Shown: positions 24,936 through 57,201 of the stretch, in pieces
Layout: every line of letters begins with the position of its first letter
How positions within the stretch are numbered: the first letter of the stretch is position 1
From: an uncultured bacterium
GTDB taxonomy: Bacteria > Chloroflexota > Dormibacteria > Aeolococcales > Aeolococcaceae
NCBI GenBank assembly: GCA_963847225.1
Contig: CAWJYZ010000005.1
Span: 745,648 to 809,647, forward strand
Reading direction: 5' to 3'
Length of the DNA stretch: 64,000 bases
The notes under the pieces: model-generated
The model's input: only the letters and a program-made list of their open reading frames with translations
What the model was told of the DNA's origin: nothing
The model's database searches: none
Made by a program: the position numbers and the translations under genes

Positions 24936-25661
24936 TCAGGAGTCGCCCGCCTCCACGCCGGCGAAGCGATAGCCGACCCCCGGCACCGCCAGGATGAAGT
25001 GGGGCCGGGACGGGTCGTCCTCGATCTTGCGACGGAGATTGCGGATGTGGACGTCGATGACCCGGGCGTCGATGGGGTGGCCGAACCCCCAGACGGCGTC
25101 CATGATCTTCTGGCGGGAGAGCACCTGCCCGGCGTTCTGAGCCAAGCAGGCGAGCAGGTCGAACTCCGTGTGGGTGAGAGCCACCTCCCCCTGGGGACGG
25201 ACGACCCGCCGCTCAGCCTGATCGAGGGTGATCCCGCGGAAGCGGAGGCGCGTCGGCCCCTTGGGGCGATCACTCGCCATCCTGGCGCGGGCCTTGCGCA
25301 GGTGGAGGGCGATGCGAGCCAGCAGCTCGCGGGGGCGGAAGGGCTTCTGGATGTAATCGTCGGCGCCCATCTCCAGACCGAGGACGATGTCGATCTCCTC
25401 GTTCTTGGCGCTCAGGATGAGGATCGGGGTCTGATCCCCCCGGCGGCGCAGCTCCCGGCAGACGTCGAAGCCGCTGGTGTCCGGGAGCATGAGGTCGAGA
25501 AGGATGACGTCGGGCCGGAAGGCCTCGGCGCGCGCCGCCGCGGGACCGCCGCGGTCCAGCTCGCTGACCAGATAGCCCTCGCTCTCGCAGGTGAGCCGGA
25601 TGGCGCGGCGGACGCCCTCGTCATCCTCCACCACCAGCACTCTGCTGCGCTGCCCTTCCAC
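24936..25661 (-). CDS. OmpR-family response regulator
   Basis: REC domain (VLVVEDDEGVRR...DVILLDLMLPDTSGFDVC...ILILSAKNEEIDIVLGLEMGADDYIQKPF) plus a winged-helix output domain (...VPGVGYRF). Confidence 0.85.
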   Translation of the reverse strand: MEGQRSRVLVVEDDEGVRRAIRLTCESEGYLVSELDRGGPAAARAEAFRPDVILLDLMLPDTSGFDVCRELRRRGDQTPILILSAKNEEIDIVLGLEMGADDYIQKPFRPRELLARIALHLRKARARMASDRPKGPTRLRFRGITLDQAERRVVRPQGEVALTHTEFDLLACLAQNAGQVLSRQKIMDAVWGFGHPIDARVIDVHIRNLRRKIEDDPSRPHFILAVPGVGYRFAGVEAGDS

Positions 25662-25830: not shown

Positions 25831-27087
25831 GTGCAGACTCAGGGCTCGCTGCAGGAATCGAGCCTGGCTTCGCTGCTCCAGACCATGCAGGTGGAGCGGG
25901 CCACCGGCTCTCTCTCCCTTGAGAGCGAGAGCGACAGCGCGTCGCTCTACTTTCTCTTCGGGCATCTCTTCCACGCCCAGAGCCCCAACTCCCAGGGCGA
26001 GGACGTCGTCATCAACGCGCTGGCCTGGCCGGAGGGACGGTACCGCTTCGACCCCCGGGCCAAGCTGCCCCCGGAGGAGACCATCAAGTCCTCTCCAGGT
26101 GAGCTGATCGCCGAGGCTGAGCGCCGCACCCCCAGCCAACCCGAAGCCGAGGAGGTCCCCTCCTGGGACGGGCAGCCGGCCTACGCGGCCCAGGGCGCAG
26201 AGACCGAGAATGGAGACCAGTACGTCGCCCCGAGCTGGGAGCCCGGAGCCGAGGAGCAGGGTGCCACCGAGGCACCGACCCCGGAAGGCGAGGGGTACTC
26301 GGGTTGGACCAGTGCATCGCCACCTTACGAGGAGCCCGGGCCGTACGAGGAGGCATCGCAACCGGCCGCCACTCCCTACCCGGAGCCCGGCCCGCAAGCC
26401 CCGAGCCCCGGGGCCTCGCAGGAGACGCCCATGCAGTTGCTCGGAGCTCCGAGCGCCGCCCCGCTCGAGATCGTCTATCCCCTCCCGGCAGGAAGGCCGC
26501 AGTACGAGGGCCTGAAGAGCGCCTTCGTCGACTTCCCGAAGCTGCTCCGCACCCTACGCGCAGATCAGCACACCGGATATGTCCGCCTCTCGAGCGGCGC
26601 GGCGACGAACGTCCTCCTGTTCCATGACGGCGAGCTCCTCGAGGCTCTCTCCAGCGAGCCGGGGGCGCCGAGCGGCGACCTGGCGTTCCAGGCGATGCGC
26701 CGCCACATGGATGCCGGAGCGGGGCTCTTGGACGTCATCGACCTGTCCGGCGACACCGTTGAGGCGCTCTCCCAGCTCCTGACGGCCCCGCTCCTGTACA
26801 CCGGCCTGCTCGGCCGCTTCATCAACTTCGACGCTCTGCTCGCCCATCTCACCGAGGAAAACGTCGAGGGCGCGGTCATGGTCGTCGGATCCGACGACGT
26901 CGGCATCATCCTCCTGAGCCAGGGGCAGGTGCTCGGTGCCTACACGCAGGCCAACCCCACGCTCAGCACCGCCACGGCCGGGGTGGCCAAGATCGCTGCG
27001 GAGAACACGGCCCGCATCGAGGTGAAGAGCGGTGCCGGCAGGGTGGCGGGAATCGACGTGGAGCACGCGCTCTCCCGGAGCTTTTGA
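25831..27087 (+). CDS. PATAN/DUF4388 domain protein with acidic Pro/Glu-rich linker
   Basis: N-terminal LASLLQTMQVERATGSLSLESESDSASLYFLFGHLFHA matches the DUF4388 signature. A second related domain lies near the C-terminus. GTG start with a ggag SD; divergent from the response regulator. Confidence 0.65.
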   Translation: MQTQGSLQESSLASLLQTMQVERATGSLSLESESDSASLYFLFGHLFHAQSPNSQGEDVVINALAWPEGRYRFDPRAKLPPEETIKSSPGELIAEAERRTPSQPEAEEVPSWDGQPAYAAQGAETENGDQYVAPSWEPGAEEQGATEAPTPEGEGYSGWTSASPPYEEPGPYEEASQPAATPYPEPGPQAPSPGASQETPMQLLGAPSAAPLEIVYPLPAGRPQYEGLKSAFVDFPKLLRTLRADQHTGYVRLSSGAATNVLLFHDGELLEALSSEPGAPSGDLAFQAMRRHMDAGAGLLDVIDLSGDTVEALSQLLTAPLLYTGLLGRFINFDALLAHLTEENVEGAVMVVGSDDVGIILLSQGQVLGAYTQANPTLSTATAGVAKIAAENTARIEVKSGAGRVAGIDVEHALSRSF

Positions 27088-28877
27088 TCCCCTTTCGGGC
27101 TCGGTCGCGGCTCCTCTCGCTCGCGCTGGGGATAGCCGTCGTGGGCGCCTCCTTGGTCCTCTCCGGCTGCTTCGCGGCTCCACCGCAGATCGTCGCCCTC
27201 ATCCCGCCCGACGGGTCCACCCACCTCGACGCCGACACCCCGGTGGAGGTCTTCTTCGACCAGGCAGTCCGGCCCGCGAGCGTCGCCGCCAGCTTCGACA
27301 TCTGTGCCGGTGCGAACGGATGCCAGAGCGGCCTCCCCGGCTGCAGCGATCTCGCCTCGGCCTTCCAAGCAGCTCCCAGCGCCGCTTGCTGGGTGAGTTG
27401 GTTGAGCGATCACTCAGGCTTTGTGTTTCACCATCATGGCCCGGCGCTCTTCGCCCCCAACACAAAGTACGAGTTCAGCCTCAGGGCGGGGGTGGCGTCC
27501 ACCGCGGGGACGGTCAACAGCCTCGACCACGTCTGGAACCTCACGAGCGCCCCCGCACCCACCCTCACCTCCTCGACGCCGGGGAGCGGCCAGACCGGTT
27601 TCCCCCGCGACGGCGCCATCTCCCTTTCCTTCTCCCACCCCATGAAGGCATCGGCGCTGGCCGCCGCGGTCTCGCTTTCTCCCGCCGCGCCCGGGGTCCG
27701 CGTCATCGCTGACCCGAAAGACCCTGCCTCCTTCGAGGTCGTGCCGCGCCAGCCCTTGGCCCCCGATACCGACTACACCATGAGGCTGAGCCGCAAGGCG
27801 ACGGACGCCCACGGCCAACCCCTGGCCCGGGAGATCAGCATCCGCTTCCGCACCGGGGCGCTCGCCGCCGGGTCCCAGGCCCTGGTCCTCGCCGGCCGGC
27901 AGGGGGAGGGTGCGACCGAGGTCCTTCTCGCGCCGCTCTCCACAGCGCCCACCTCCCTTCCCATCCCTGCCGAGGTGGTGGCCCAGGCTCCCCCCTGCCG
28001 GGCCGCCGCGGGCTGCGAAGGAGCTCCCCAGGGAGGGGCCACCGCCTCTTTCGAGCAGGCGGCGATCTCACCGGGCAGCCTTTGGCTGGCCCTCGTGGAG
28101 ACCGATCCGGCCACCCCGCAGTCGACCCAGCTGCACATCCTGGATCTGGCCTCGGGCCACGAGCAGATCGCCTTCCAGAGTGCCCAATGGCCGAGCTGGT
28201 CGCCGGATGGCTCGACCCTGGCCTTCGTGAGCGGCGGGAGAGAGGTCGAGCTCTACCAGCCTGGCAGCGGCTCGCTCACCTCTCTGATGAGCGGCCTCCC
28301 CCCCTCCGGAACGCCGGTGTGGACCGGCTCCGGGGACACGCTCGCCATCCCGGTGGCGGCCAAGGACGGCTCGGTGGCGCGCATCGACCTCGCCACCCCT
28401 GCCCTGGACGCCCGCTACCCTCTGCCCGGACTGACTGGTGCGGCGAGCCGTATCGTGGCCGCGCCCTCCGGTCAGGAGATCGCGGTGGCGCTCCAGCCTC
28501 CCGGGGGGTCCACGACGACATGGGTGGCCAAGCCCGCCGGCTCGCGCGCCCCCCAGCACCTCGCCGCGGCGGCCCTTCCCGTCGGGTTCGTCGACAGCGC
28601 CACCCTCATCGCGGTGGAGCGCTCCGCCAGCGGCGCCTCCCAACTGGTCCGCATCGACCTGGGCAGTGGCGCGACCGCGCCGCTCGCCGCCCCGAAGCTG
28701 CATCCGGATCTGAACACCGCGGCGGTCGCCCCCGACGGCCGCCAGATCGCCTATCTCGCCACCGCTGGGGCAGGGCAGGCGGAGGCCATCGTCGCCAACG
28801 CCGATGGGACCGGCGCCCTCCCCATCGTCTTACCCGAGAGCGGCCTCGTCCCCATCGCCATCAGCCTCGGAGCCTAG
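27084..28877 (+). CDS. Lipoprotein with Ig-like (SbsA/BIG-type) N-terminal domains and TolB-like beta-propeller C-terminal region
   Basis: Signal peptide plus lipobox LVLSGC. PDGSTHLDADTPVEVFFDQAV resembles Ig-like repeats. The C-terminus has WSPDGSTLAF / APDGRQIAYL propeller blades. TTG start overlapping the upstream stop. Confidence 0.6.
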   Translation: MIPFRARSRLLSLALGIAVVGASLVLSGCFAAPPQIVALIPPDGSTHLDADTPVEVFFDQAVRPASVAASFDICAGANGCQSGLPGCSDLASAFQAAPSAACWVSWLSDHSGFVFHHHGPALFAPNTKYEFSLRAGVASTAGTVNSLDHVWNLTSAPAPTLTSSTPGSGQTGFPRDGAISLSFSHPMKASALAAAVSLSPAAPGVRVIADPKDPASFEVVPRQPLAPDTDYTMRLSRKATDAHGQPLAREISIRFRTGALAAGSQALVLAGRQGEGATEVLLAPLSTAPTSLPIPAEVVAQAPPCRAAAGCEGAPQGGATASFEQAAISPGSLWLALVETDPATPQSTQLHILDLASGHEQIAFQSAQWPSWSPDGSTLAFVSGGREVELYQPGSGSLTSLMSGLPPSGTPVWTGSGDTLAIPVAAKDGSVARIDLATPALDARYPLPGLTGAASRIVAAPSGQEIAVALQPPGGSTTTWVAKPAGSRAPQHLAAAALPVGFVDSATLIAVERSASGASQLVRIDLGSGATAPLAAPKLHPDLNTAAVAPDGRQIAYLATAGAGQAEAIVANADGTGALPIVLPESGLVPIAISLGA

Positions 28878-28879
28878 CC

Positions 28880-30049
28880 GTGGCCCGGCGACTCCTCTTC
28901 CTCATCGCCGACACCGGGGGCGCCCACCGCTCCTTCGCGAACGCTGTTTCCCACCGCCTGGCCTTCTCTCATCCTGGCGAGTTCGAGGTGGCGATCGTCG
29001 ACCCCTTCGCCTCGCGGCCCCACGGGACGGTACCGGCGAAGAGCTCAGAGGCTGCCGGCGACCAGGCCACCGGCAGAGCCACCCGCCTCTACGGTCCGAT
29101 CACGGTGCACGCCCCCTGGCTGTGGGGAGGTCTCTGGCACGCCACCAACTCCCGGCCGGCGGCGGCCCTGATCGAGGCCACCCTGCGGGTCGTCGACCGC
29201 AACATCGTGCGCTGGCTCCGGGCTCTGGAGCCCGCGGCGATCGTCTCCTTCCATCCCCTCCTCGGCCACCCCGCCGCCCGGGCACGCCATTACCTGGGGC
29301 TGACCGCCCCGGTCTTGAGCGTCGTCACCGACCTGGTCGACGTCCATGCCCTCTGGGCTTCCCCGCAGGTTGATCTCGTCGTCGTGCCCTCGCCGATCGC
29401 GCTCGACCGGTGTCTGCGCAACGGCGTCCCCGCCGAGCGCTTGGCGCGCGTTGGTCTGCCCGTCGACCCCGCCTTCCAGCCGGCCGGCGAGGCGCAACGG
29501 CGCCACCTGCGCGAGACACTTGGACTCGCCGCAGACCGCTTCACGGTGCTTCTCTGCGGGGGCGCCGACGGCTCCGGCAATCTCACCCATTGGGCGCAGC
29601 TCATCGCCGGCAGTCAGTCCGACATCAACCTCATCACTGTCTGCGGGCACAACGGACGCGCCCGACGAGCCCTCGAAGGTCTCCGGGACAGGCATGGCAA
29701 ACCGGTCGCCGTCCTCGGTTTCGTCGACAACATGGCGGAGTGGATGCGAGCCTCCGACGTGGTGGTGACCAAGGCCGGCGCCGGAACGGTGGCCGAGGCG
29801 CTCTGCTGCGGCCTTCCTCTTCTCATCGTCTGGTTCATCCCCGGCCAGGAGCGGGGCAACATGGAGTGGGTCGTGGCGGGTGGCGCCGGGCGCTACGTCC
29901 CCGCCGATCAGGAGCTGCTGCGCGAGCTCGGCGAGCTCTCGCGCCCCGGTTCCGAGGGCCTCGCTGCGCTCAGTGCCGCGGCTGGCCGCCTGGCTCAGCC
30001 TCGGGCCGCCGAGGAGGTCGCCGAAATGATCCGTTCCCTCGCCCGATGA
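28880..30049 (+). CDS. GT28-family glycosyltransferase, MGDG-synthase/UgtP-like (diacylglycerol glycosyltransferase)
   Basis: The N-terminal RRLLFLIADTGGAHR matches the MGDG_synth family signature. C-terminal GT-B domain. Confidence 0.7.
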   Translation: MARRLLFLIADTGGAHRSFANAVSHRLAFSHPGEFEVAIVDPFASRPHGTVPAKSSEAAGDQATGRATRLYGPITVHAPWLWGGLWHATNSRPAAALIEATLRVVDRNIVRWLRALEPAAIVSFHPLLGHPAARARHYLGLTAPVLSVVTDLVDVHALWASPQVDLVVVPSPIALDRCLRNGVPAERLARVGLPVDPAFQPAGEAQRRHLRETLGLAADRFTVLLCGGADGSGNLTHWAQLIAGSQSDINLITVCGHNGRARRALEGLRDRHGKPVAVLGFVDNMAEWMRASDVVVTKAGAGTVAEALCCGLPLLIVWFIPGQERGNMEWVVAGGAGRYVPADQELLRELGELSRPGSEGLAALSAAAGRLAQPRAAEEVAEMIRSLAR

Positions 30050-31227
30050 GCTCCGGGGTCATCGCCTCGCCGCCATCGGTGCGTGCCGAGATCACCCGCC
30101 TCCGCCTCTACAACTTCCGCAACTACGGCGAGCTGACGGTCGAGCTCGGAGATGGCGTGAACGTCTTCAGCGGGGAGAACGCCCAGGGCAAGACCAACCT
30201 CCTGGAGGCGGTCGCCACCCTTCTTCTCACCCGGTCACCGCGGGCGACGTCACCCGCCGAGCTCATTCGCTGGGGAGAGGAGGAGGCCGCTGTTGACGCC
30301 CTGGTCACCCGCGGTCTCCGCCACGAGACCCTCGGGCTCCGCCTTCGCCTTCGCCCGCAGCCAGAGGCCGGCTCCACGGTGCGGCCCCGAGCCGTACGCA
30401 CCTCGCTCGCTGAGAGCAAGCCCATCCCGGCCCGGGAGGTGCTGGGGCGCTGCCCCGTCGTCCTCTTCTGGCCCGACGACCTCCAGCTCGTGAAGTCGGG
30501 GCCGGAGATGCGACGGCGGCTCACCGATACCCTCCTCAGCCAGCTCGATCGCAAGGCCGGCGACGATCTGCTCCGCTTCCGCCGCGCTCTCCAGCAGCGC
30601 AACGCTCTCCTCCACCAGCTCCGAAGCGGCGCCGGTGACGATCACCTCGCCCCGTTCGACGCCGCGCTATCCCGCCACGGCGCGGCGGTGCAGCGGGCGC
30701 GTCGCGAGATCGTCGAGGGCCTGGCCCCGATCGCCGCCGCGACGATGCGCGACCTCACCGGGGGCCGGGAGGAGCTCTCCCTGCGCTACCGTCCGGACGC
30801 TTCCGACGGCGCGACCACCGAAGAGGAGATGGCCGTGGCTCTGAGCCAAGCTCTCCGGCGCCTCCGGCCCGAGGAGTTGGCCCGCGGCATCACACTGGCT
30901 GGCCCTCACCGTGATGACGTCGAGTACCTCATCGACGGGCGCCCGGCGCGTCTCACCGCCTCCCAGGGGCAGCAGCGCAGCGCGGTGCTGGCCACCAAGC
31001 TCGCCGAGCTCCGCTACGCGCACCAGCGGACCGGGGCGATTCCGCTCCTTCTCCTCGATGACGTCTTCAGCGAGCTGGACCAGCAGCGCCGCACCCAGCT
31101 CGTCGCTGCCGTGACGAGTGGGCCGGACTCACCCCAGAGCCTCATCACCACCGCCGAGCCCGTCGACCTCGGTGGTCCGCGCGAGCGCCACTTCCTCGTC
31201 CGCCGCGGCACGGTCGCGCCGCGATGA
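30046..31227 (+). CDS. recF: DNA replication and repair protein RecF
   Basis: ITRLRLYNFRNY, Walker A GENAQGKTNLLEA and LLLDDVFSELD (Walker B/D-loop). The start ATG overlaps the upstream stop. Confidence 0.85.
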   Translation: MSSGVIASPPSVRAEITRLRLYNFRNYGELTVELGDGVNVFSGENAQGKTNLLEAVATLLLTRSPRATSPAELIRWGEEEAAVDALVTRGLRHETLGLRLRLRPQPEAGSTVRPRAVRTSLAESKPIPAREVLGRCPVVLFWPDDLQLVKSGPEMRRRLTDTLLSQLDRKAGDDLLRFRRALQQRNALLHQLRSGAGDDHLAPFDAALSRHGAAVQRARREIVEGLAPIAAATMRDLTGGREELSLRYRPDASDGATTEEEMAVALSQALRRLRPEELARGITLAGPHRDDVEYLIDGRPARLTASQGQQRSAVLATKLAELRYAHQRTGAIPLLLLDDVFSELDQQRRTQLVAAVTSGPDSPQSLITTAEPVDLGGPRERHFLVRRGTVAPR

Positions 31228-31547
31228 CCGGGTCCCACCGGCCCCGCGACAAGCGTGGCGACCCCCAGCACATCGCCGGTCTCCTCGACACCGCGCTCCG
31301 GGAGCTGGGGGTGCGCCGGCAGATCCGCGAGCTCCAGCTCCGCGAGGCGTTCGCCGCCGTCGTCGGTCCGGCCCTCGCCTCCCTCTGCGAGGCCATCTCA
31401 TTGGAGCGCGGCACCCTCCTCGTGGCCACCCGAAACGGCGCCCTGGCTCAGCAGCTGCAGCTGGAGATGCCGGTCATCACCGCCGAGCTCAACCGGCGCT
31501 TGGGCGGCGATCAGGTGCGCCGCCTTCGCTTCACCGCGCTCAGCTGA
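31224..31547 (+). CDS. DUF721 family protein (recF-gyrB spacer gene)
   Basis: ~107 aa with the typical conserved position after recF. Start overlaps the recF stop. Confidence 0.65.
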   Translation: MTGSHRPRDKRGDPQHIAGLLDTALRELGVRRQIRELQLREAFAAVVGPALASLCEAISLERGTLLVATRNGALAQQLQLEMPVITAELNRRLGGDQVRRLRFTALS

Positions 31548-31553
31548 GCTGCT

Positions 31554-32672
31554 CTACGGAACTCGCACCGGCATGATCACGGACAGGAAGTCGTCTCGCC
31601 CGTGGGGGCGGAAGGCGGCCGGCTGCAGCGGCCCGTTGAAGCCGAGCTGGACCTCCTCGGCGTCGATGGCCTGCAGAGCGTCCAGAAGGTAGCGGGCGTT
31701 GAAGGAGACCTGTACATCGTCTCCCTCCACGGTGGCCGGGAGTGGCGCGTCGTGGTCACCGACCTCCGCCGTCTGAGCGCGTAGCTCGAGCTCGCCGGAC
31801 CCGGCGTGGAGACGGAGGGGATTGGCGGCGTCGCGAGCCAGCACCGATGCCGTGCGGGCGCTCTTCAGGAGGAGGGCGGTGGGCAGGACGACGGTCGTGG
31901 AGGACTGGGAGGGGATGACCTGCGCGTAGTTGGGGTAGTTGCCCTCGATGAGGCGAGAGGCGATCTCGATGTCGCGAAGACGGAAGAAGATCTGGTTCCG
32001 GTTGTCGCTGAAGGCGATGCCCAGCTTGGGGCGGCTCGGGTTGACCGCGCGGGCGACCTCTCCGAGGTGCCGGGCGGGGACGATGACGCTGCCGGTGTGC
32101 AGACCCGCCTCCCGGATCTCGACCGCAAGCGTCTTCACGGCGAGGCGATGGCGGTCTGTCGCCACCATGGTCATCCTCTCACCCTCGATGTGGAGGAGCA
32201 CGCCGGTCAGAACCGGGGTCTGCTCGTCCCCGGAGGCGGCCACCGAGGTCTGAGCGACACCCAGCTGGAACTGCGCGGCGTCCACCTCCACCGCGGGCTC
32301 GCTCTCCCGAGCTGGGATGGGCGGGAACTCCACGGCGTCGATGCCGTGGAGATTGGTCCGCTGCGCCGCGTTGCTGATGCGGAGGATCTGCGTCCGCTCC
32401 TCCACCTCCATCCGGCAGGGCGACTCGTCGAGGGAAGCCACGTACTCGCTGAGGAGACGGGCGGGAACGGTGATGCGGCCCTCCTCCTCGACCGTGGCGG
32501 GCACCACCGCGCTGATGGTGAGATCGAGGTTGGTGGCGGTCACCCGCAGCCCGCCGCTGTCCGTCTCCAGAAGAACGTTGCTGAGCACGGGGAGCGTCGA
32601 TCGCGGGGATACGGCTCTCGAGACCAGGTTGAGCATGGCGCTGAGAGCGGATGGTGAGACGGTGCACTTCAT
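31554..32672 (-). CDS. dnaN: DNA polymerase III beta sliding clamp
   Basis: MKCTVSPSALSAMLNLVSRAV start and three-domain clamp pattern, ~373 aa. The ATG was verified. Confidence 0.9.
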   Translation of the reverse strand: MKCTVSPSALSAMLNLVSRAVSPRSTLPVLSNVLLETDSGGLRVTATNLDLTISAVVPATVEEEGRITVPARLLSEYVASLDESPCRMEVEERTQILRISNAAQRTNLHGIDAVEFPPIPARESEPAVEVDAAQFQLGVAQTSVAASGDEQTPVLTGVLLHIEGERMTMVATDRHRLAVKTLAVEIREAGLHTGSVIVPARHLGEVARAVNPSRPKLGIAFSDNRNQIFFRLRDIEIASRLIEGNYPNYAQVIPSQSSTTVVLPTALLLKSARTASVLARDAANPLRLHAGSGELELRAQTAEVGDHDAPLPATVEGDDVQVSFNARYLLDALQAIDAEEVQLGFNGPLQPAAFRPHGRDDFLSVIMPVRVP

Positions 32673-32921
32673 GGCGGAGCCGGTGGCGACGTCGGTGGGC
32701 CAGTTGTTCACCCGAGGGGACTCCTTGAGGGGGACGAGTTTATTGAGAAGAGGTAGTTAACCGAAGTGGGCAAACCGGGGAGAACCCGGCCGTTTGAATT
32801 GGGCGCCCTGTGGAGAACTGGCGCCTGCCTGTGGAGGGGCAGGGGGCTTTGGCTGGGGTTTTGCTCAGGGAAGGCGGGCTGGGGCGATCCTCCACAGGCT
32901 CCCCGGAAGCTCTCCACAGGA
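32673..32921. promoter_or_regulatory. Candidate oriC: DnaA-box cluster plus AT-rich unwinding element in dnaA-dnaN intergenic region
   Basis: Four YCTCCACAG 9-mers: 32808-32816 and 32829-32837 on the bottom strand, 32889-32897 and 32911-32919 on the top strand. Also TTGTTCACC at ~32704 and an AT-rich stretch gagtttattgagaagaggtagttaacc at 32737-32763. Confidence 0.6.
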
Positions 32922-34337
32922 TTACCCCTCGGACTCCGTGTGGTTGTGAAGGCGCTGTCGGAGCTGGCGGATGTCGCTCTGGAGGCGGACGTCCTCCCGG
33001 AGGAGCTCGCTGATCTTCTCGATGGCGTGGAGCGCGGTGGTGTGGTCGCGCCCGCCGAAGGCATCCCCCACCACGGGCAGGGAGGACTCCGTCTCCTCGC
33101 GGATGAGGAACATGGCGACCTGGCGGGGAAAGACGATGTGCTTGTCGCGGCGCTTGCTCTTCATCTCCTCCACGCTGATCCCGTAGTGGCCCGCCACCGT
33201 GGCTTGGATGAAAGGAATCGTGAGCGGCTGCACGTCGGCCACGGGAATGATGTCGCGGAGAATGCGCTGCGAGGTTTCCAGAGTGATGGCGTGGCCGTTG
33301 ATGGAGGCGTGGGCGAGGACTCGGATCAGCGCCCCCTCCAGCTCGCGGATGTTCTTCTGGATCCGGTGAGCGATGAAGCTGACAACCTCGTCGGGGACGA
33401 GGCGGGAGTGGGGGCCGAGCTTGCTCTTGAGGATGGCCAGGCGGGTCTCGAACTCGGGTGGCTGGATGTCAGCCATGAGGCCCCCTTCGAAGCGGCTACG
33501 CAGCCGGTCCTCGAGGGTGGGAATTTCCTTGGGCGGCCGGTCGCTGCTCACCACGATCTGCTTCTGGATGTCGTGGAGTGCGTTGAAGGTGTGAAAGAAC
33601 TCCTCCTGGGTGCGGTCCTTCCCGGCCAGGAACTGAATATCGTCGATGAGCAGCACGTCGACACTGCGGTAGCGATGCCGGAACTCTGTGGTCTTGTTCT
33701 CGAGGATGGACTCCACGACCTCGTTGGTGAACTTCTCAGAGGTCACGTAGGCGACCTTGGGGGAGCGGCGGTGTCCCTCTCGCACGGCGTGCCCGATGGC
33801 GTGCATGAGGTGGGTCTTGCCCAGGCCCACGCCGCCGTACAGGAAGAGCGGGTTGTAGGCCTTCCCGGGAGCCTCCGCCACCGCTCGGCAGGCGGCGTGG
33901 GCGAAGCGCGAGGAGGTGCCGACGACGAAGCTCTGGAAGGTGAAATTTGGATTGAGCCGCGTCTCCCCGGCGGGGGACAGGTCGGTCTCGGGGGCGAGGT
34001 CGGAGTCCGGCAGTGGAGCGGGCTCGTCGCGAGCGGGCACCGCGGTGGGGTCGACGGTGATCTCCACGGTGCAGTCGCGGCCGATGAGGCTGGAGATGAT
34101 CTCCTGGATGACGGAGACGAAGCGCTCGGAGACCCAGTCTCGCGCCAGCCGCGTCGGCACCCCGATGAGGAAGCGCTCGCCGTCGCTCTCCACGAGGGTG
34201 GCGGTGGCCAGCCAGGTCTCGTAGCTGGGACGGGCGAGCTGGAAACGCAGCTCCTCCTGGGCCGCGGCCCAGACCTGCTGTCCTGGCGGGCGTTCGCTGA
34301 CGCCGAGGGCGGCGCCATCGTCAGCTCCGAGCGTCAC
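32922..34337 (-). CDS. dnaA: Chromosomal replication initiator DnaA
   Basis: AAA+ Walker A GGVGLGKTHLMHAIGH, DnaA box-binding C-terminus (VGDAFGGRDHTTALHAIEKI), 471 aa. Confidence 0.92.
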   Translation of the reverse strand: MTLGADDGAALGVSERPPGQQVWAAAQEELRFQLARPSYETWLATATLVESDGERFLIGVPTRLARDWVSERFVSVIQEIISSLIGRDCTVEITVDPTAVPARDEPAPLPDSDLAPETDLSPAGETRLNPNFTFQSFVVGTSSRFAHAACRAVAEAPGKAYNPLFLYGGVGLGKTHLMHAIGHAVREGHRRSPKVAYVTSEKFTNEVVESILENKTTEFRHRYRSVDVLLIDDIQFLAGKDRTQEEFFHTFNALHDIQKQIVVSSDRPPKEIPTLEDRLRSRFEGGLMADIQPPEFETRLAILKSKLGPHSRLVPDEVVSFIAHRIQKNIRELEGALIRVLAHASINGHAITLETSQRILRDIIPVADVQPLTIPFIQATVAGHYGISVEEMKSKRRDKHIVFPRQVAMFLIREETESSLPVVGDAFGGRDHTTALHAIEKISELLREDVRLQSDIRQLRQRLHNHTESEG

Positions 34338-34832
34338 GCTTTACCTGTCGACCCGCATCGGCCAACGCCGAAGCCGCACCTCTGTCCTCCGCGTGCCGCC
34401 GTGATCACTCCAGTTGTCCACAGGTTGTGAACAAGAGTGGAAAAATCGCGGCGCCGCTGCCGGACGGGGCGGGTCAGGGACGACGCCTTGAGGGAGCCTG
34501 TCCCGCCGGAGCACCCGCCAGTCTAGCAATGCCGGAGGCGGCCGACAACGAGTCGCGCCGGCCGTTCTTGGCGGAGCCCTGGCCAGGTCCGGTCGAGGTC
34601 TGGGGGGATCGCCAGGGCTGGCGATGACCGTGGCCGCCCCGGTCACCGTTCGGGGAATGAGGGGGCGGAGCCCCGCCGGAAAAGGTGAAGGCGGAGGCGG
34701 GAGCCAGAGCGCCGGGGGATTCGGGGCAGAGCCCCCCGCATGGGTATACTGACCGGGATTCCCGCCACCCGGCGCTGGCTCTGGCATGCCCGCGGGTGGA
34801 GATTCCTCGAAGTTCCGTGCAGGAGAGCTGGC

Positions 34833-34980
34833 ATCAAGCGGACCTATCAGCCGAAGAAGGCGTACCGGCGCAAGAACTCACGGCTTCCGTATCCGGATGG
34901 CGACACCCGGTGGGCGGAACGTGCTCAAGGCCCGCCGCCTCAAGGGCCGCAAGCGCCTGACCCCCGCCGGGCCGCGCTGA
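34833..34980 (+). CDS. rpmH: 50S ribosomal protein L34 (apparent 1-nt deletion and non-canonical start)
   Basis: (G)[14 protein letters not shown] in one frame continues as [30 protein letters not shown] in the +1 frame. An aggaga SD lies 6 nt upstream of the ATC Ile codon that occupies the expected ATG position. Confidence 0.7.
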
Positions 34981-50126: not shown

Positions 50127-53100
50127 TCAGGCGGGGACCGAGGCGGACGCCTCGACCGGGTTCAGGCCCTCGGCTCCCTCCGCTCTCGCCGGCGGGAGGA
50201 CGCGATCCGTCCGGTCGACGTACGGCTGGGCCCCGAGCTCCGTGAAGGTCCGGCGGGCCTGGGCGATGAGCTCCTCGGCTTGGCGAAGCCGCCCCGCGCG
50301 GGCCAGCACTTCGCCAAGCTCCATGCGTGCCACGGCGGACCAGAAAGGTCGGCTCAGGCTGTCAAAGGCCTCGGCGGCCTGGCGCAGGTGGGTCTCGGCC
50401 TCCTCGGCGTCGCCACGCCTTTCGGCAAGACGGCCGGTCCAGCGCAGCAGGTGGGCGTCGATGGACGGCTGCGCGCCGGCCCGAATGTTGCGGCGCATGA
50501 GGTCGATCAACTCCTGGACCTTGCTCTCCTGGTCGAGGGTGAAGGCCGCTTCAACGGCCTCGACGAGCGCCTGCCGCAGGGAGACGAGGGACGACTGTTC
50601 GATGCTGGCGCGCAGGGTGTCCTCGGCGAGAGCCAGGGCCTGGCCCGCCTCCCCCTCCGCGTTGAGCACCGCCGCTTGAGCCGCATCGAAGTACCAGCGG
50701 TCCTGCCCGGTGGTCGCCTTCTGCAGGGTGGAGCCGGAGGAGTTGAGGAGGCCATGAGCGGCGAGCACGTCGCCCTGTCGCAGATGCAGCCACAGCGCGG
50801 TGAGCGAGGTGGCGGCGACGAAGGTGGACTGACTGAGCTCCGCCACGTCGTCTTCCGAGTACCCCGCGAAGATGGATCTGCAGGCGTCCCACCGGCCGAG
50901 CTCGAAGAGTGGAGCCATGCAGTTCAGCTTGTTGCCCCACATCACGGGCCGATCGCCGATGCGCTCGGCAAGCTCGGCACCCTGCTCGTAGACGGCGAGC
51001 GCGTCCTCCATACGGTCGGCCTCCTCCAGGCGTGTGGCCAGGTACGAGCAGGCGCGTGCCGCTTGTTCAGGCAGGTCGTGGTCGAGGGCGACGTTGAGGG
51101 CACCCTGAAAGAGGAGCTCGGCCTCCATGAGGCGGCCCTGGGTCTGCAGGATGCCGCCCTTCGTGTCGAGGCTCCGCGAGAGGAGGTCCCAGGAACCCAG
51201 CTCCTCGGCGATCTCCAGTGCTCGCTCGATGTGCTCCAGTGCGACGGTGAACTCACCACGGAAAAACGCCATGCTGGCAACGCTGCTCTCGGCGTTGCCC
51301 AGGAAGCCCCGGTGCTCCTCCCGGGTGGCGCCCTGCAGGCCCTGGAGTGCCTTCTCGCCGCGGGGGACGGCGGCGTCGCTGTCCCCCTCCCGGAACTCCA
51401 GGCGGGCGAGCTCGGTGAGGGCCGCGGCTCCCTCCATCGGCAGACCAGCCGTGGCGAAGGATTCGGCCGCCTGGCGCAGATGGGACCTCGCCTCGACACC
51501 ACGACCCTTGCGCGCCGCTGCCCTGCCGGCTTTGGCGTGCAATTCTGCGCGGAGGGCGGCGTCGTCAATCAGCTCGAGAGCCTGTTCGTAGTAGCGCTGC
51601 GCGGAGGCCGGAGCGCTCAGGGAGTTGGCGTGTTCGCCCGCTCTGATCAGCCCTCGGGTGGCCCGGTCGCGGATCTCCGGCGCGTCCTCCGCGTCAGGGT
51701 CCGCTCGGTAGGCGGCGACCAGATGCGAAGCCACCACCTCGGTGATGTCCTCTCCCTCCTGCCAGGCGCTCTGCAGGTGAGCGGCCGCTGCGAGGTGGCG
51801 CAACTTGCACTCGCGTCTCGCCAGGGTGGCGTAGGCCACGCTCCGCACCAGGTCCTGAACGAACACGTACTGGCCGCGCTCCGGCGAGCGAGGGTCGGAC
51901 TGGATGGCGAGCAGGTCCTTGCTGACCAAGCCGGTCAAGAGCCGCGCCAGCTCGCTCTCCTCGCTCCCGTTCACCGCGGAGAGAGCCGCCGCGGTGAAAG
52001 ACTTGCCAAGCACGGACGCGTCCTGGAGCACCTGCCGCTCGGGAAGGCTCAGATGGTCGAGCCGGGCCGCCACCAGGGCATGCAGGCTCTCCGGCACCTC
52101 CAGAGCCTGCAGCGACCCCTCGAGACGGTACTTCCCCTGGGACTCCACGAGAAGGCCACGGTCGAGAAGCATGCGCACCGTCTCCACGGCGTAGAGGGGG
52201 ATGCCGGCTGCCCGCTCCCGGATGCGGGCGGCGACGTCGGCGGGAAGCCCCGGCACGAGGCCGTCGAGCAGCTCGGTCATGGCCTCGGAGGAGAGCGGCT
52301 CGAGGTAGAGGGAGGCCAGTCCGCGCTTTCCCGTGCCCCACCCCGGGCGCCGCTCGCTCAGCTCAGGGCGGGCCAGGGTGATGACGAGGATGGGGGTGCT
52401 TCGCGACCAGTCAAGGAGGTACTCGATGAAGTCGAGGAGCCCGCCGTCGGCCCACTGGAGATCCTCGAAGACCATGACGGTCAGGCTGTGCGCGGCGACG
52501 CGCTCGAAGAAGACGCGCCAAGCCGCGTACAGGTCTCGTGGGTCCCCGAGGCTCACCTCCTCGAGCCCGACGAGGTGAGCCAGCCGAGGCTCCACCCAGC
52601 GCCGCTCCTCCTCCTCGGCGACAAAGTCGAGGATGGTTGCGTGGAGCTTGTCGCGCGCCGATTCGGTCGCCTCGTTCTCAGCGATCCCCGCACGCATCCG
52701 CACCATCTCCGCCAGGGCGGAGTACGCAACTCCCTCTCCATAGGCGAGGCAGCGGCCGCGATGCCAGTAGATGGTCTCGGTCAGGCCGTCGACGTATTTG
52801 AAGAACTCCCAGGCGAGGCGGGACTTGCCCACCCCGGCCATGCCCACGATGGAGAGGAGCCGGGCCCGGGCCTCCTCGCCGGTGCCGTGCAGGAACTCCT
52901 TGAGAAGGCGGAGCTCCCGGTCGCGGCCCACGAAGGGGGGCTCCAGGCCGGAGGGGCGGAGCGCCCCGCCGCGGGCCGCGACCACCCGGGCCGCTTGCCA
53001 CAGCCGGATGGGCTCCGGCTTGCCCTTCAGCTGATGCTTGCCGGTGTCCTCGTAGACGATGGCGGCCTCGGTCGCCTGGCGGGTGGCGTCGCCGACGTAG

Positions 53101-53768
53101 ACCATCCCCGGCTCCGCAGCCGCCTGTACCCGCGATGCCGTGTTGACCAGATCTCCGGCGACCATGCCCTCGCCGCTCGCGCCGACGTTCACCGCCACCT
53201 CGCCGGTCATGACCCCGGCACGGGCCGTCAGCCCGGGGATCCCGAGCTCCTGCCCGAAGACCGCCACGGAGTCGACGAGCTCGAGGGCGGCGCGGACGGC
53301 TCGCTCCGCTCCGTCCTCGAGGGCCCTCGGGGCTCCCCATACCGCCATCACGGCGTCGCCGATGAACTTCTCGACGGTTCCGCCGTAGCGTCCGATGACG
53401 GTGCGAGCCCTCTCGAAGTACTGGCTGAGCAGGTCGCGCACCTCCTCGGCATCGCGCCGGTCGGAGAGTGCGGTGAAGCCGACGAGATCGGCGAACAGCA
53501 CCGTGACGTGGCGCCGCTCTGGAGCAGGCTGCTCGGAGCGCACCCCGCCCGGCGTGGGCCCGGCGCGAACCCCAGGGGGGCTCATCGCCGCGGGCGCAAC
53601 GATCGCCGCAGGGGCCTCCCCGAGCGCCACCCCGCATTCACCGCAGAACCGATCCTCCGCGCCGTTGGCAGCGCCACAGGACGGGCAGAGGCGCTCCAGC
53701 GGAGCGCCGCAGCTGCCGCAGAACCGCCGGCCCGGTCGGTTCTCCGCGCCGCAGGCCTGGCAGTTCAT
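50127..53768 (-). CDS. Zinc-ribbon / class III adenylate cyclase / STAND (AAA_16) ATPase / TPR multidomain protein
   Basis: MNCQACGAENRPGRRFCGSCGAPL..CPSCGAANG double zinc ribbon. The cyclase has metal Asp motifs (VLFADLVGFT, EKFIGDAVMAV), a substrate Lys and Asp (AGDLVNTASR), and the N...R transition-state pair. Walker A IVGMAGVGKSRLAWE. The C-terminal ~600 aa are TPR-like helical repeats. The ATG was verified. Confidence 0.8.
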   Translation of the reverse strand: MNCQACGAENRPGRRFCGSCGAPLERLCPSCGAANGAEDRFCGECGVALGEAPAAIVAPAAMSPPGVRAGPTPGGVRSEQPAPERRHVTVLFADLVGFTALSDRRDAEEVRDLLSQYFERARTVIGRYGGTVEKFIGDAVMAVWGAPRALEDGAERAVRAALELVDSVAVFGQELGIPGLTARAGVMTGEVAVNVGASGEGMVAGDLVNTASRVQAAAEPGMVYVGDATRQATEAAIVYEDTGKHQLKGKPEPIRLWQAARVVAARGGALRPSGLEPPFVGRDRELRLLKEFLHGTGEEARARLLSIVGMAGVGKSRLAWEFFKYVDGLTETIYWHRGRCLAYGEGVAYSALAEMVRMRAGIAENEATESARDKLHATILDFVAEEEERRWVEPRLAHLVGLEEVSLGDPRDLYAAWRVFFERVAAHSLTVMVFEDLQWADGGLLDFIEYLLDWSRSTPILVITLARPELSERRPGWGTGKRGLASLYLEPLSSEAMTELLDGLVPGLPADVAARIRERAAGIPLYAVETVRMLLDRGLLVESQGKYRLEGSLQALEVPESLHALVAARLDHLSLPERQVLQDASVLGKSFTAAALSAVNGSEESELARLLTGLVSKDLLAIQSDPRSPERGQYVFVQDLVRSVAYATLARRECKLRHLAAAAHLQSAWQEGEDITEVVASHLVAAYRADPDAEDAPEIRDRATRGLIRAGEHANSLSAPASAQRYYEQALELIDDAALRAELHAKAGRAAARKGRGVEARSHLRQAAESFATAGLPMEGAAALTELARLEFREGDSDAAVPRGEKALQGLQGATREEHRGFLGNAESSVASMAFFRGEFTVALEHIERALEIAEELGSWDLLSRSLDTKGGILQTQGRLMEAELLFQGALNVALDHDLPEQAARACSYLATRLEEADRMEDALAVYEQGAELAERIGDRPVMWGNKLNCMAPLFELGRWDACRSIFAGYSEDDVAELSQSTFVAATSLTALWLHLRQGDVLAAHGLLNSSGSTLQKATTGQDRWYFDAAQAAVLNAEGEAGQALALAEDTLRASIEQSSLVSLRQALVEAVEAAFTLDQESKVQELIDLMRRNIRAGAQPSIDAHLLRWTGRLAERRGDAEEAETHLRQAAEAFDSLSRPFWSAVARMELGEVLARAGRLRQAEELIAQARRTFTELGAQPYVDRTDRVLPPARAEGAEGLNPVEASASVPA

Positions 53769-53823
53769 CGCGGGGAGTGTACGACGCCCCTCTGAGAGGG
53801 AAGGGTGCCGTTGCCCACCCGCA

Positions 53824-56800
53824 TCAGGACTGCGCGCTGACCGCAGCCCTGCCTCGGGCTCGAACCGTCGTCCGCAGGATCTGCGGGCGATCGATGGCAC
53901 CTGCTCCCCGGAGCCGCTCCATGGCGCGCAGGGCACGGGCCGCGGACACCGTGTTGCCCTTCTTCTCGAAGAGGGGGATGGCCTCGGCCAGCGCAGCCTC
54001 GGCCTCTCCAGGCTTCCCGGCTGCCTCCAGCACCTCCGCGAGCCCGACGAGGGCGTCACCCTGGACGTCGGGTTGATCGGTGGTGCGAATCACCCGGACG
54101 GCCTCATGGGCCATCTCCTCGGCCTCTCCGGGTCGACCCTGCACGGCCAGTAGCTTGGCCTGGATGCAGCGCCACTGGTACTGGGCGCCAACGTCGTGTG
54201 GCGCCGCCAGATCGTGGCAAACGCCAGCAAACGTCGAGGCCTCCTCGTCGCGGCCCTGCGCGTGCAGGACCTCGGCGAGCAGCCCGGCGACAGTGGGCGT
54301 GTACCCCTTGTCGCCCATCGCAGTCAGCGCCTCGTAGTCGGCGCGAAGCTCGGACTCAGCGCGATCCAGGTCGCCGGCCAGCATCTCCGCCGGTCCCGAG
54401 TGCAGCGAGGTGATCGCGGCACTCAGGCTGAAGCCGAGCTCAGTCAGCATCTTTCGGCTGCGCTGGTAGAGATCCCGGGCCAGCTCGGCGCTTCCGCACA
54501 TGGCTTGCAGGTGACTCATCGCCGAGAAGGTCATCGCCTCAGTTCTGCGATCCCCGGCCCCTCGACCCAGGATCTCTTGGCAGCGGTCGAGGGCGTCCGA
54601 GACCGGGGTGGCGCTGTAGACGACGCAGGAAGCGAGCGCGGAGAGCATGCGGATCTCGAACACGCGGCTGGAACCGAGCTCGGCTTCGTGGATTGCCTGG
54701 GTTACGGCTTCCTCGGCGCGACTGAACTGTCCTTCATAAAAGTGCACGTAAGCCATGAGCCGCCAGGCGCGAGCGAGACCCTCGTGCGAGCCGGTCCGCT
54801 CCAGCTCCCTGATGGCCTGCTCGCACTCCGCGGCGACGGCCGCCGCCGGCTCGTTCTCCGGCGCGGACAGGAACCGCCACATCCGCCGCACCACCGACGC
54901 GACGATGGCAAAGGCGGGCCTGTCTTGCGCCCGGGCGCGCTCCTCCGTGGTGATGAGGGCTTCTTCGGCCGCCTGAAACTGCCCCATCTCGCCCAGGGCC
55001 TCGCCGATATGCAGGAGCCACCGTGGCGCCTCTCTTCCATGGGGGTCGAGGGTCGCGGCGCGGTGCAGCAGGGTGGCCGTCGCCGGCACGTCACCGCTCG
55101 ATCGGGCCCGCTCGCCAGCCGCCGCCAAATGCGTCGCCCCGCGCCGGCCCACGGTCTTGCCCCGCTCGTCGACGGGACCGAGCTGCGCCAGCGTCAGGCA
55201 GGCCTGCTCCAGGTGATAGCCGCAGACCTCGTCCAGCTCTCCCGAATGCTCGGAGGGATTGGCCTCGAGCCAATCGGCGAACCGCTCGTGCAGGTCAACC
55301 CGAGTCCGCTTCAGGAGGCCCTGGTAGGCAGCGTCGCGGATCAGCGCGTGGTCGAAGCGGAACGCCCGCTGCCCCGGGGATCCGGCCTCCACGGGGGTCA
55401 CCAGCTCTCGTCTGACAAGGCCATCCAGGCTCGCCCCCGCCTGGGGACGGAGCTCGTCGGAGCAGAGAGCCTCCACCGCCGGCTGCAGGAACAGCTGACC
55501 GATGACCGCCCCGCGCTCCAGGACGCTGCGGTCCGTGGCGCCCAGCCGGTCGAGGCGGGCAGCCAGCAGGGCTGTGATGCTGGGAGGCACGGCCAGCGAC
55601 GAGAGATCGGCAGCCGCCACCCAGCCGGTCCCCTCGCGGCGGATGAGCCCGTCATCGATCATCATGGAGAGCATCTGCTCGACGAAGAGCGGATTCCCTG
55701 CCGCTGCCTCGATGATCCGGCGGCGAGGCGCCTCGGCGAGCGTGCCGTCGCCGAGAAGATTGCACACCACCTCCCCGCTCTCCACCTCGCTCAAGGGGCT
55801 GAGGATCAGCACCTGAGCGCCATCTCTGCTCTCGCCCCATCCCGGCTGCTGATCCAACAGCTCGGGGCGCGCAGAGCAGAGGAGCAGGAGCGCTGGTGCG
55901 TCCGAGCCGGGCTCAGCAAGGTATCGAAGGAGATCCAGGAAGGTGAGCTCTGCCCAGTGGATGTCCTCGATCCTCGCCACCACCGGGCCGGTGTGGCTGA
56001 GCGCTGCGATGAGCTGCCGGGTGGCCCAGAACGTCTCTCGAACCGGGAAGGTGGCCTCCCCCAGCCCGAGCACCGCCGCCAGCCTCTCGGTGACGTCCGG
56101 TGCCTCGCCCCCGACGAGCTGATCGAGCTTTGTCCGAGCTGCCTCCGCGTCGTCCGCATCGGTGATCCCGGCGGCATCCCGGACCATCTCGGCGAGCGGC
56201 CCAAAGCTGCCCTCGCCGTAGGAGAGGCACCTCCCGTGCAGCACTCGCGCCTTGTCCGCAGCCCGTTCGAGGAACTCCTGGATCAGCCGGGATTTGCCGG
56301 TGCCGGCGGGGGCGAGGACGGTCACCATCTGGGGGGAGCCGAGGCTCGACACCCGGGCCAGGGCCTCGACCATCGCGTTCAGCTCCGCGCTGCGTCCGAC
56401 CAGTGGGGTGTCGGCGCGGCGGGCCACCCCTTCGCGCCGGCTCACCCCCCGGAGGCGATAGGCGGGGATGCGCTCGGACTTTCCCTTCAGCTCCAGCGGC
56501 TCCACCGGCTCAACGTCGACGGCGTCGCGGACCAGGCGGTAGGTCGGCTCTCCGATCAGGGTTTCCAGGGGCGGGGCCGCCTGCTCCAGCCGGGCGGCGA
56601 CGTTGACGGCGTCGCCGGTCACCAGCCGCTGTCCTGGTGCTGGCTGGCCCGCGATGACCTCGCCGGTGTTCACGCCCGTGCGGTTCTGGAGAGCCACACC
56701 CCAGCGGGCCGCGAGATGGTCGTTGAGCTTCTTCAGCTCCTCCTGCATCTCGTACGCAGCACGGACCGCCCGCACGGCGTCGTCCTCGTGGACGCGGTTG

Positions 56801-57087: not shown

Positions 57088-57201
57088 GGGAGGTCATTCC
57101 CCCCGACGCCGCGCGATTACAGTGGAAGATCCCGCAGCAGAGCCCCGCTGCCGCGCCCTTGGCGGGGCGGGGCCTGCCGCGAACCGTGGGTCAGGGTGCG
57201 T

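Follow-up and report, generated by a model that had tools for sequence, protein, structure and literature searches.

The question raised by this locus is how recF and the DUF721 gene came to be encoded on the strand opposite to dnaA and dnaN, running towards dnaN, and whether this order is inherited or an artefact of assembly. The canonical cluster dnaA-dnaN-recF-dciA(DUF721)-gyrB-gyrA is exemplified by Mycobacterium Rv0001-Rv0006 (PMC5720831), and the same-strand order dnaA-dnaN-recF-dciA is commonly found across many other phyla (PMC5109545, PMC5720831). An earlier note on this DNA had called the order near-universal. This is overstated, as Brezellec et al. 2016 (PMC5109545) report dciA within or adjoining this operon for 15 of 23 phyla. 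The window, i.e. the whole 64 kb stretch of DNA that was analysed, resembles the canonical cluster in that dnaA, dnaN, recF and dciA are found within 4.3 kb, that dciA is located directly downstream of recF with overlapping stop and start codons, that rpmH-rnpA-yidD-yidC-jag lie divergently upstream of dnaA, and that the dnaA-dnaN spacer contains a DnaA-box cluster. It differs in that the genes do not share one strand: dnaA, upstream of dnaN, and dnaN itself are on the minus strand, whereas recF and dciA are on the plus strand and converge on dnaN. The latter two follow envelope-type genes (DUF4388, Big_5/PD40, GT28) and not dnaN, and gyrB-gyrA is missing from the window. The organism, a soil bacterium, belongs to Candidatus Dormibacterota; the best relatives of its DnaN (62-77% identity) are all from Dormibacterota MAGs.

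The features of the locus are listed in Table 1. recF is a full-length equivalog match, with residues 16-358 aligned to positions 1-329 of the 339 positions of TIGR00611. The translation contains the Walker A P-loop GENAQGKT, and SMC_N and AAA_23 matches are found at residues 16-69. The 393 aa are counted from the ATG at 30046, with an alternative start at 30079; an independent gene call in the near-identical strain L042 gave the same 393-aa protein. In the DUF721 protein, residues 17-103 align to positions 2-89 of the 89 positions of PF05258, and with 107 aa, the length of the maximal ORF, it is essentially domain-only. Proteins of the DciA family bind the replicative helicase DnaB, aid its loading and are essential for initiation, and by homology the DUF721 gene of the window is the predicted helicase-loader gene dciA. 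Domain-only ('Group 4') DciA proteins are so far without experimental study (Blaine et al.). dnaN encodes all three beta-clamp domains and matches TIGR00663 with 277.9 bits (cutoff 137.65). The GT28 glycosyltransferase additionally shows a diglucosyl-diacylglycerol-synthase-like NCBIfam match below the cutoff. For the DUF4388 gene the start is uncertain, with codon usage placing it at 25831 and the longest ORF at 25591.

Table 1 Features of the recF-dciA/dnaN-dnaA locus (positions are those of the window)
Feature	Position	Strand	Basis and remarks
DUF4388-domain gene	25831..27087	+	Pfam PF14332, 86.8 bits; first in the plus-strand block
Big_5 / PD40 (beta-propeller repeat) protein gene	27084..28877	+	Pfam PF13205 and PF07676
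GT28 / MGDG-synthase-like glycosyltransferase gene	28880..30049	+	Pfam PF04101 and PF06925
recF	30046..31227	+	TIGR00611 equivalog, 305.9 bits (cutoff 172); 393 aa
dciA (DUF721), predicted	31224..31547	+	Pfam PF05258 (now named DciA), 69.7 bits (cutoff 24)
Spacer gctgct between the convergent dciA and dnaN stops	31548..31553		Read from the sequence
dnaN (DNA polymerase III beta clamp, 385 aa)	31554..32711	-	Pfam PF00712, PF02767, PF02768
dnaA-dnaN spacer, candidate oriC	32712..32921		DnaA-box cluster and AT-richer stretch
dnaA (471 aa)	32922..34337	-	TIGR00362, 545.6 bits (cutoff 343.9); DnaA_N, Bac_DnaA, Bac_DnaA_C (Pfam)

The spacer between dnaA and dnaN is a candidate oriC on sequence grounds. 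Four TCCACA/TGTGGA cores (32809, 32830, 32891 and 32913) are found within its 210 bp, where the density across the window would predict 0.08, while TTATCCACA is present in one-mismatch versions only. An AT-richer stretch, gagtttattgagaagaggtagttaacc, is located at approximately 32737-32765. Within the window, cumulative G-C is lowest at 31569, which is near the spacer but coincides with the switch in gene strand. According to crude gene calls, the strand split is about 50/50 on the left side and 37/63 on the right side of the DnaA-box cluster, i.e. there is no leading-strand bias. Orientation constraints therefore appear weak here, and a head-on replication conflict was rejected as a reason to find the orientation surprising.

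At the junction, the earlier note had described recF-DUF721 as converging on dnaN with a 6-bp gap, and the sequence agrees exactly: the dciA TGA (31545-31547) is followed by the spacer and by cta (31554-31556), the reverse complement of the dnaN TAG. The note had also seen no room for terminators. Indeed, a consensus scan returned no terminator-like site at the dciA/dnaN junction, and RNA folds over the junction are not more stable than those of shuffled sequences on either strand (z = -0.8 and -1.0). As an anomaly the point does not stand, since convergent genes that overlap or nearly abut are common in this genome. Based on stop codons alone, the gap is at most 33 bp in 5 of the 14 convergent gene pairs of the window, 3 of these 5 being overlapping, so that 6 bp between convergent stops is nothing unusual for this genome.

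To place the arrangement in its lineage, 32 Dormibacterota species loci were recovered with DnaN and their gene order was determined by tblastn synteny. The convergent order (dnaA+ dnaN+ dciA- recF-) is found in 25 of the 32, with stop-to-stop gaps of 3, 17, 19, 25, 51, 72, 515-519 and 1800-5449 bp; five loci are uninformative, owing to contig ends or to dciA lying beyond the fetched flank. The Big_5/PD40 gene is located beyond recF, on the same strand as recF, in 23 of the 25 convergent relatives, and its adjacency to the DUF4388 gene is likewise kept in relatives. The canonical same-strand order (dnaA+ dnaN+ recF+ dciA+) is kept in two deep-branching loci, L029 and L032. In a third, L030, recF is on the dnaN strand and dciA was undetected. 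DnaN of these three shares 47-49% identity with that of the window. recF and dciA are adjacent in the 25 relatives that cover both genes, namely 23 convergent ones together with L029 and L032. In a neighbor-joining tree of two proteins only, DnaA and DnaN, rooted with a distant Verrucomicrobiota outgroup and without L030, all convergent genomes fall into one clade, with L029 and L032 as its sister group.

An order common to 25 related species goes back to an old rearrangement that was passed on by descent, and is no error of assembly. We consider the convergent order to be an old, fixed, lineage-wide synteny variant of the origin-proximal cluster in Candidatus Dormibacterota, with a probability of roughly 0.85; it is a conserved lineage trait, real and not novel. 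The competing suggestion of a misassembly, in which wrong contig joins, one near 31550 and one elsewhere, would have produced an artificial orientation, is practically negligible in probability. A probable 1-nt insertion, near 34870, splits rpmH in the window, so the assembly is imperfect at the base level, but the convergent order recurs in 25 independently assembled species genomes, several of them on contigs of 0.5-1.9 Mb. Furthermore, a Logan contig of strain L042 (ERR11594399, 4429 bp) is 99.91% identical to the window and collinear over 28893-33321; it spans GT28-recF-dciA/dnaN-dnaA and has the identical 6-bp gap. No repeats were found at the putative joins, and the overlapping stop and start codons at 30046 and 31224 are intact gene junctions. 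It is the agreement of the species genomes with this independent contig that leads us to drop the misassembly suggested in the earlier note.

Both orientations of recF-dciA exist within the phylum, which is the sole point in favor of an actively invertible segment that flips by site-specific or inverted-repeat-mediated recombination and of which the window would show one state. Such a segment is hardly credible here. Inverted repeats do not flank 30046 and 31553; the best inverted-repeat pairs of the region are chance-level matches (70-82%) away from the breakpoints, and a flip-flop switch or repeat-driven recombination was rejected on this ground. Pfam scans covering part of the window genes returned no recombinase family. 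In addition, orientation tracks phylogeny strictly, one clade being convergent and its sister clade co-directional throughout, strain L042 has the same orientation as the window, and the junction sequences are unconserved among relatives. The recF-dciA cassette thus lacks the properties of an invertible (phase-variable) DNA segment, and the arrangement is neither a misassembly, nor a mobile or invertible element, nor a new system.

The extent of the flipped segment follows from the deep-branching lineage, which belongs to the same phylum and shares the left flank of the window. Both flanks of L029, with jag, yidC, yidD, dnaA and dnaN on the left and GT28-like and Big_5/PD40 on the right (minus strand of that locus), are oriented as they are in the inverted genomes, and recF-dciA is the sole difference in orientation; the Big_5/PD40 orientation is also unchanged in L032. 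In contrast to the window, recF-dciA of this lineage is co-directional with dnaN and is followed in L029 by a UvrD/PD-(D/E)XK helicase-nuclease gene, which takes the place of gyrB. The earlier proposal of a local inversion or rearrangement at the origin is borne out in that recF-dciA is flipped relative to the lineage of L029, L030 and L032. The breakpoint suggested at about 25660 is not, because the orientation of DUF4388, Big_5/PD40 and GT28 is unchanged in the canonical lineage; the flipped part is 30046-31547 only.

The polarity of the change is based on this one sister lineage and on published work according to which other phyla commonly have the same-strand order. With two states and one sister lineage sampled, either polarity requires one event within the phylum, so the convergent order could in principle be ancestral and the lineage of L029, L030 and L032 could have secondarily re-created the canonical one. 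This reversal is improbable, as the same-strand dnaA-dnaN-recF-dciA order is widespread outside the phylum (PMC5109545, PMC5720831) and retaining it is more parsimonious than restoring it exactly by chance.

With the convergent order as the derived state, the recF-dciA cassette (~1.5 kb) would have been inverted in place in the ancestor of the main Dormibacterota clade, dnaA-dnaN and the DnaA-box cluster remaining unmoved on one side and GT28 and Big_5/PD40 on the other. The departure of gyrB-gyrA from the neighborhood probably predates this inversion, after which recF and dciA would no longer have been located downstream of dnaA-dnaN on the same strand. In-place inversion is the mechanism we infer; excision followed by re-insertion in the opposite orientation cannot be distinguished from it. 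In the window, the co-directional plus-strand genes DUF4388, Big_5/PD40, GT28, recF and dciA are joined by junctions of -4, +2, -4 and -4 bp: the DUF4388 stop overlaps the Big_5/PD40 start by 4 bp, GT28 starts 2 bp past the Big_5/PD40 stop, and both the GT28 stop with the recF ATG (30046-30049) and the recF stop with the dciA ATG (31224-31227) share an ATGA. This spacing suggests a five-gene operon with read-through, of which recF-dciA would form the tail, presumably transcribed from that side and translationally coupled. The converging transcripts might end within the opposite gene or by factor-dependent termination, as is supposed for other tight convergent pairs of the genome.

It is also conceivable that the junction is a selected regulatory design, in which the two transcripts, dnaN and recF-dciA, have overlapping 3' ends beside oriC and the clamp and helicase-loader genes control each other by antisense or transcriptional interference. 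The dciA and dnaN stops lie 6 bp apart without a terminator, and tight gaps of 3-25 bp recur in relatives (L007, L026, L002 and L027). This explanation is nevertheless unlikely. Junction tightness is not conserved, because in 18 of the 25 convergent relatives dnaN and dciA are 0.5-5.4 kb apart, with unrelated genes in between (ABC transporter, MFS, small membrane proteins); in L019, for instance, the dnaN-dciA insert encodes an ABC and an MFS transporter, besides ORFs that have no Pfam match. Tight convergent pairs are a general feature of the genome, and a comparison across relatives with tight junctions revealed no conserved element, both sequence and length being variable. A more far-reaching version appears decidedly doubtful as well. 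According to it, the inversion released dciA and recF from control by the dnaA-dnaN promoter and put them last in a cell-envelope operon (DUF4388, Big_5/PD40 and a glycolipid-type glycosyltransferase), and where the junction is 3-25 bp, as in the window, the overlapping dnaN and recF-dciA transcripts are under mutual regulation. If true, replication-initiation capacity would be tied to envelope growth in slow-growing, dormancy-prone soil bacteria.

The absence of gyrB and gyrA from the vicinity, as claimed previously, holds across the whole window. Five GyrA/GyrB signature motifs have zero occurrences in the six frames of the 64 kb, and all ORFs of at least 500 aa belong to other families (MFS transporters, SF1 helicase, two adenylate-cyclase/AAA_16/TPR proteins and Big_5/PD40). 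Likewise, gyrBA was not found in the dnaN-dciA insert of L019 or after dciA in L029, and the deep-branching lineage shares this absence with the window, where gyrB-gyrA does not follow recF/dciA either. In 'scattered' replication operons, dciA stays beside recF or gyrB (Brezellec et al. 2016, PMC5109545). The window fits this description exactly, its operon being broken and dciA still located beside recF, i.e. in the class 1 context of these authors. Dormibacterota are outside the sampling of that study, and a two-gene inversion abutting dnaN is described neither there nor in the other DciA papers found; a literature search on origin-region synteny in Dormibacterota returned nothing relevant.

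The result matters little outside comparative genomics. Within it, the main Candidatus Dormibacterota clade provides a derived two-gene inversion in an otherwise conservative origin-proximal cluster, and the inversion might be used as a rare genomic change that distinguishes this clade from its deep-branching sister lineage. The recF-dciA linkage outlasts the breakage of the cluster, in agreement with Brezellec et al. (PMC5109545). As to RNA genes, Rfam families gave no match in the 64 kb window, and one tRNA-Ala is located in the window, distant from the locus.

The gene map of the locus was built from the ORF table together with Pfam and NCBIfam searches, and the locus genes pass the respective family tests. 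An overview is given in the table below. The G+C content of the window is about 71%. The successive junctions of the five-gene plus-strand block (DUF4388, Big_5/PD40, GT28, recF, dciA) are -4, +2, -4 and -4 bp, spacing that suggests packing as an operon with translational coupling. Within this block, recF and dciA (the DUF721 gene) are still linked and overlapping; they are uncoupled from the dnaA-dnaN pair and directly adjoin the end of dnaN. The dciA stop codon (TGA, 31545-31547) is followed by gctgct and the reverse-complemented dnaN stop codon (TAG, 31554-31556). All reading frames of the 64 kb lack GyrA and GyrB signature motifs, and all ORFs of at least 500 aa were assigned to non-gyrase families. 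The convergence of recF-DUF721 on dnaN with a 6-bp gap and the absence of gyrBA, as described in the earlier note, were thus confirmed in all details by ORFs, family searches, sequence and motif scan.

Genes at the dciA/dnaN locus of the window with their family matches
Gene or product	Position	Strand	Family match
OmpR-type response regulator	24936-25661	-	
DUF4388 protein	~25831-27087	+	
Big_5/PD40 protein	27084-28877	+	
GT28/MGDG-synthase-like glycosyltransferase	28880-30049	+	
recF	30046-31227	+	TIGR00611, 305.9 bits (cutoff 172)
DUF721 gene (current Pfam name DciA)	31224-31547	+	PF05258, 69.7 bits (cutoff 24)
dnaN	31554-32711	-	three clamp domains, TIGR00663
dnaA	32922-34337	-	TIGR00362
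rpmH, rnpA, yidD, yidC, jag	~34.8-37.6 kb	+	

A DnaN protein scan with one genome per GTDB species yielded 41 loci, 32 of which belong to Candidatus Dormibacterota (AD3) MAGs with DnaN identities of 47-77%, and the window was assigned to Dormibacterota on this basis. Gene order was determined by tblastn with the window proteins, each match being extended to its stop codon. The order of the window, dnaA and dnaN on one strand followed by dciA and recF on the other, is found in 25 species, with stop-to-stop gaps of 3 (locus L007), 17, 19, 25, 51, 72, 515-519 and 1800-5449 bp. Several of these loci are located on contigs of 0.5-1.9 Mb. In addition, an independent contig of 4429 bp from ERR11594399, encoding an identical DciA, is collinear with window positions 28893-33321 at 99.91% identity, including the 6-bp gap. 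Because the order recurs in 25 species, on long contigs and in an independent assembly, a misassembly, which the earlier note had considered, is excluded for practical purposes. The same note had regarded an order shared with close relatives as real but not novel, and the synteny comparison leads to this outcome. The three most divergent species (L029, L030 and L032, a deep-branching lineage) differ: L029 and L032 keep the canonical same-strand order dnaA-dnaN-recF-dciA, and in L030 recF shares the dnaN strand and no dciA match was found. Five loci were uninformative, either because they end early or because dnaN is followed by over 4 kb of other DNA.

In a neighbor-joining tree of concatenated DnaA and DnaN (816 columns; two loci from Verrucomicrobiota as the root), L029 and L032 are sister to a single clade that comprises all convergent genomes and the window. 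Since the same-strand order prevails in many phyla (PMC5109545; PMC5720831), the most plausible reading is that the convergent order is derived and arose a single time, in the common ancestor of the main clade. The left flank of L029 (jag-yidC-yidD on the minus strand, dnaA-dnaN on the plus strand) and its right flank (GT28-like and Big_5/PD40 genes on the minus strand) are the same as in all other loci. Only recF-dciA changes orientation, so the event spans about 1.5 kb, a segment that may have been flipped by inversion or by excision and re-insertion. The proposed local inversion or rearrangement therefore holds for these two genes but not for the block reaching to ~25660. The convergent arrangement is accounted for by an old inversion of two genes that became fixed and is a trait of the lineage. 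An active invertible switch was rejected because no inverted repeats flank the recF-dciA cassette, Pfam scans over part of the window revealed no recombinase family, and cassette orientation follows phylogeny.

The gene after dciA in L029 encodes a UvrD/PD-(D/E)XK helicase-nuclease and is not gyrB, which indicates that gyrBA left the neighborhood earlier than the recF-dciA inversion. The L029 gene (12524-15430, plus strand) encodes a 968-aa AddA/PcrA-like fusion and occupies the slot of gyrB in other phyla. The closest description is the 'scattered' operon of Brezellec et al. 2016 (PMC5109545); in Dormibacterota, likewise, dciA is retained next to recF. The canonical operon is characterized by co-directionality and gyrBA adjacency, whereas the window locus has neither. 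As a literature search found no paper on origin-region synteny in Dormibacterota, the specific variant is undescribed, and it belongs to a well-known kind.

The encoded DciA is a nearly bare DUF721 domain (107 aa, domain residues 17-103), and the maximal ORF is 95-112 aa in most relatives. The DciA proteins of Mycobacterium and Vibrio, in contrast, carry a long disordered extension that is required for activity. Domain-only DciA forms 'Group 4' of Blaine et al., a class common in Chloroflexi, and the window protein corresponds to this class or to a borderline Group 1.

For the whole window, a crude codon-usage gene call was used; convergent gaps are set by stop codons alone, start-codon choice being irrelevant. 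The 14 convergent pairs have gaps of 226, 33, -6, -43, 193, 38, 6, -29, 21, 241, 454, 72, 130 and 191 bp. Gaps of at most 33 bp occur in five of the 14 pairs, three of them overlapping, and a 6-bp gap is not unusual for this genome. A terminator scan found nothing at the dciA/dnaN junction, the region having fewer sites than shuffled sequences, and RNA folds across the junction were no better than shuffled controls on either strand. Evidently, this genome does not depend on intrinsic terminators between its genes. The lack of room for terminators pointed out earlier is thus accurate for the junction, but it characterizes the organism in general and, given the frequency of tight convergent pairs, is not an anomaly of the locus. 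recF-dciA would be transcribed as the tail of the DUF4388/Big_5-PD40/GT28 unit, and the converging transcripts may terminate within the opposite gene or by factor-dependent termination. A regulatory role of a 3' transcript overlap, though conceivable, is unlikely as the reason for the arrangement, since most relatives keep the two units kilobases apart.

Among the convergent genomes, the early-branching subclades (L027, L007 and the group of the window) have tight junctions, and in a later subclade (L008-L031) dnaN and dciA are separated by 1.8-5.4 kb of unrelated genes. The junction sequence is not conserved among the tight-junction relatives compared. Judging by these varied inserts, the junction behaves as a variable, insertion-tolerant site directly beside the probable origin. 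The interval in L019 (11122-16483) contains an ABC transporter, an MFS transporter and three ORFs without Pfam match; the spacers of ~0.5 kb in L001 (11161-11694) and L035 (11137-11508) each contain a different small hydrophobic (membrane-protein) ORF.

The dnaA-dnaN spacer (32712-32921, 210 bp) contains four TCCACA/TGTGGA DnaA-box cores (0.08 expected), forming two inverted pairs, and an AT-richer stretch at ~32737-32765. In relatives, this spacer holds one to three cores; in the canonical-order lineage, five cores lie upstream of dnaA instead. The cumulative G-C minimum of the 64 kb lies at 31569, essentially at the dciA/dnaN junction, and coincides with the coding-strand switch, so that replication and coding skew effects are inseparable. 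Together, the boxes, the AT-richer stretch and the minimum most likely place the origin at this locus, with the spacer as candidate oriC. If so, the leftward fork would run head-on into the five-gene block, an orientation of little weight because leading-strand gene bias is absent across the window. A further DnaA box is located upstream of dnaA (34414-34422).

The window rpmH (L34; 34832-34980) is split across two frames, with 14 residues in one and 29 in the +1 frame, owing to a 1-nt insertion near 34866-34875 (an extra A in 'AAGAACTCAC'; relatives encode K-T-H, AAG ACN CAC). The gene is intact in a single frame in 11 of 11 relatives inspected. The indel probably reflects an error at base level, in sequencing or assembly; if real, it would mean a frameshifted L34 gene. 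Across the window and 31 Dormibacterota loci, the codon just 5' of KRT(Y/F)QPKK (putative start codon, 34832-34834 in the window) is ATC in 22, ATA in five, GTG in three and CTG in two cases. A conserved GGAG is located 6-8 nt upstream. In several loci, an in-frame stop lies 6-11 codons upstream, and no ATG, GTG or TTG falls in between. Initiation of rpmH thus seems to occur at a non-canonical AUC/AUA across Dormibacterota.

Elsewhere in the window, an ARAGORN-predicted tRNA-Ala(TGC) (5526-5600, minus strand) falls inside a 418-aa ORF of the codon-usage call (5120-6376, minus strand); the two calls cannot both be correct. Two adjacent giant paralogues of ~1213 and 1087 aa (50127-57093, minus strand) combine zinc-ribbon, adenylate/guanylate cyclase, AAA_16 and TPR (MalT-like) Pfam domains, and an MFS transporter fused to a cyclic-nucleotide-binding domain is encoded nearby (58848-60632).
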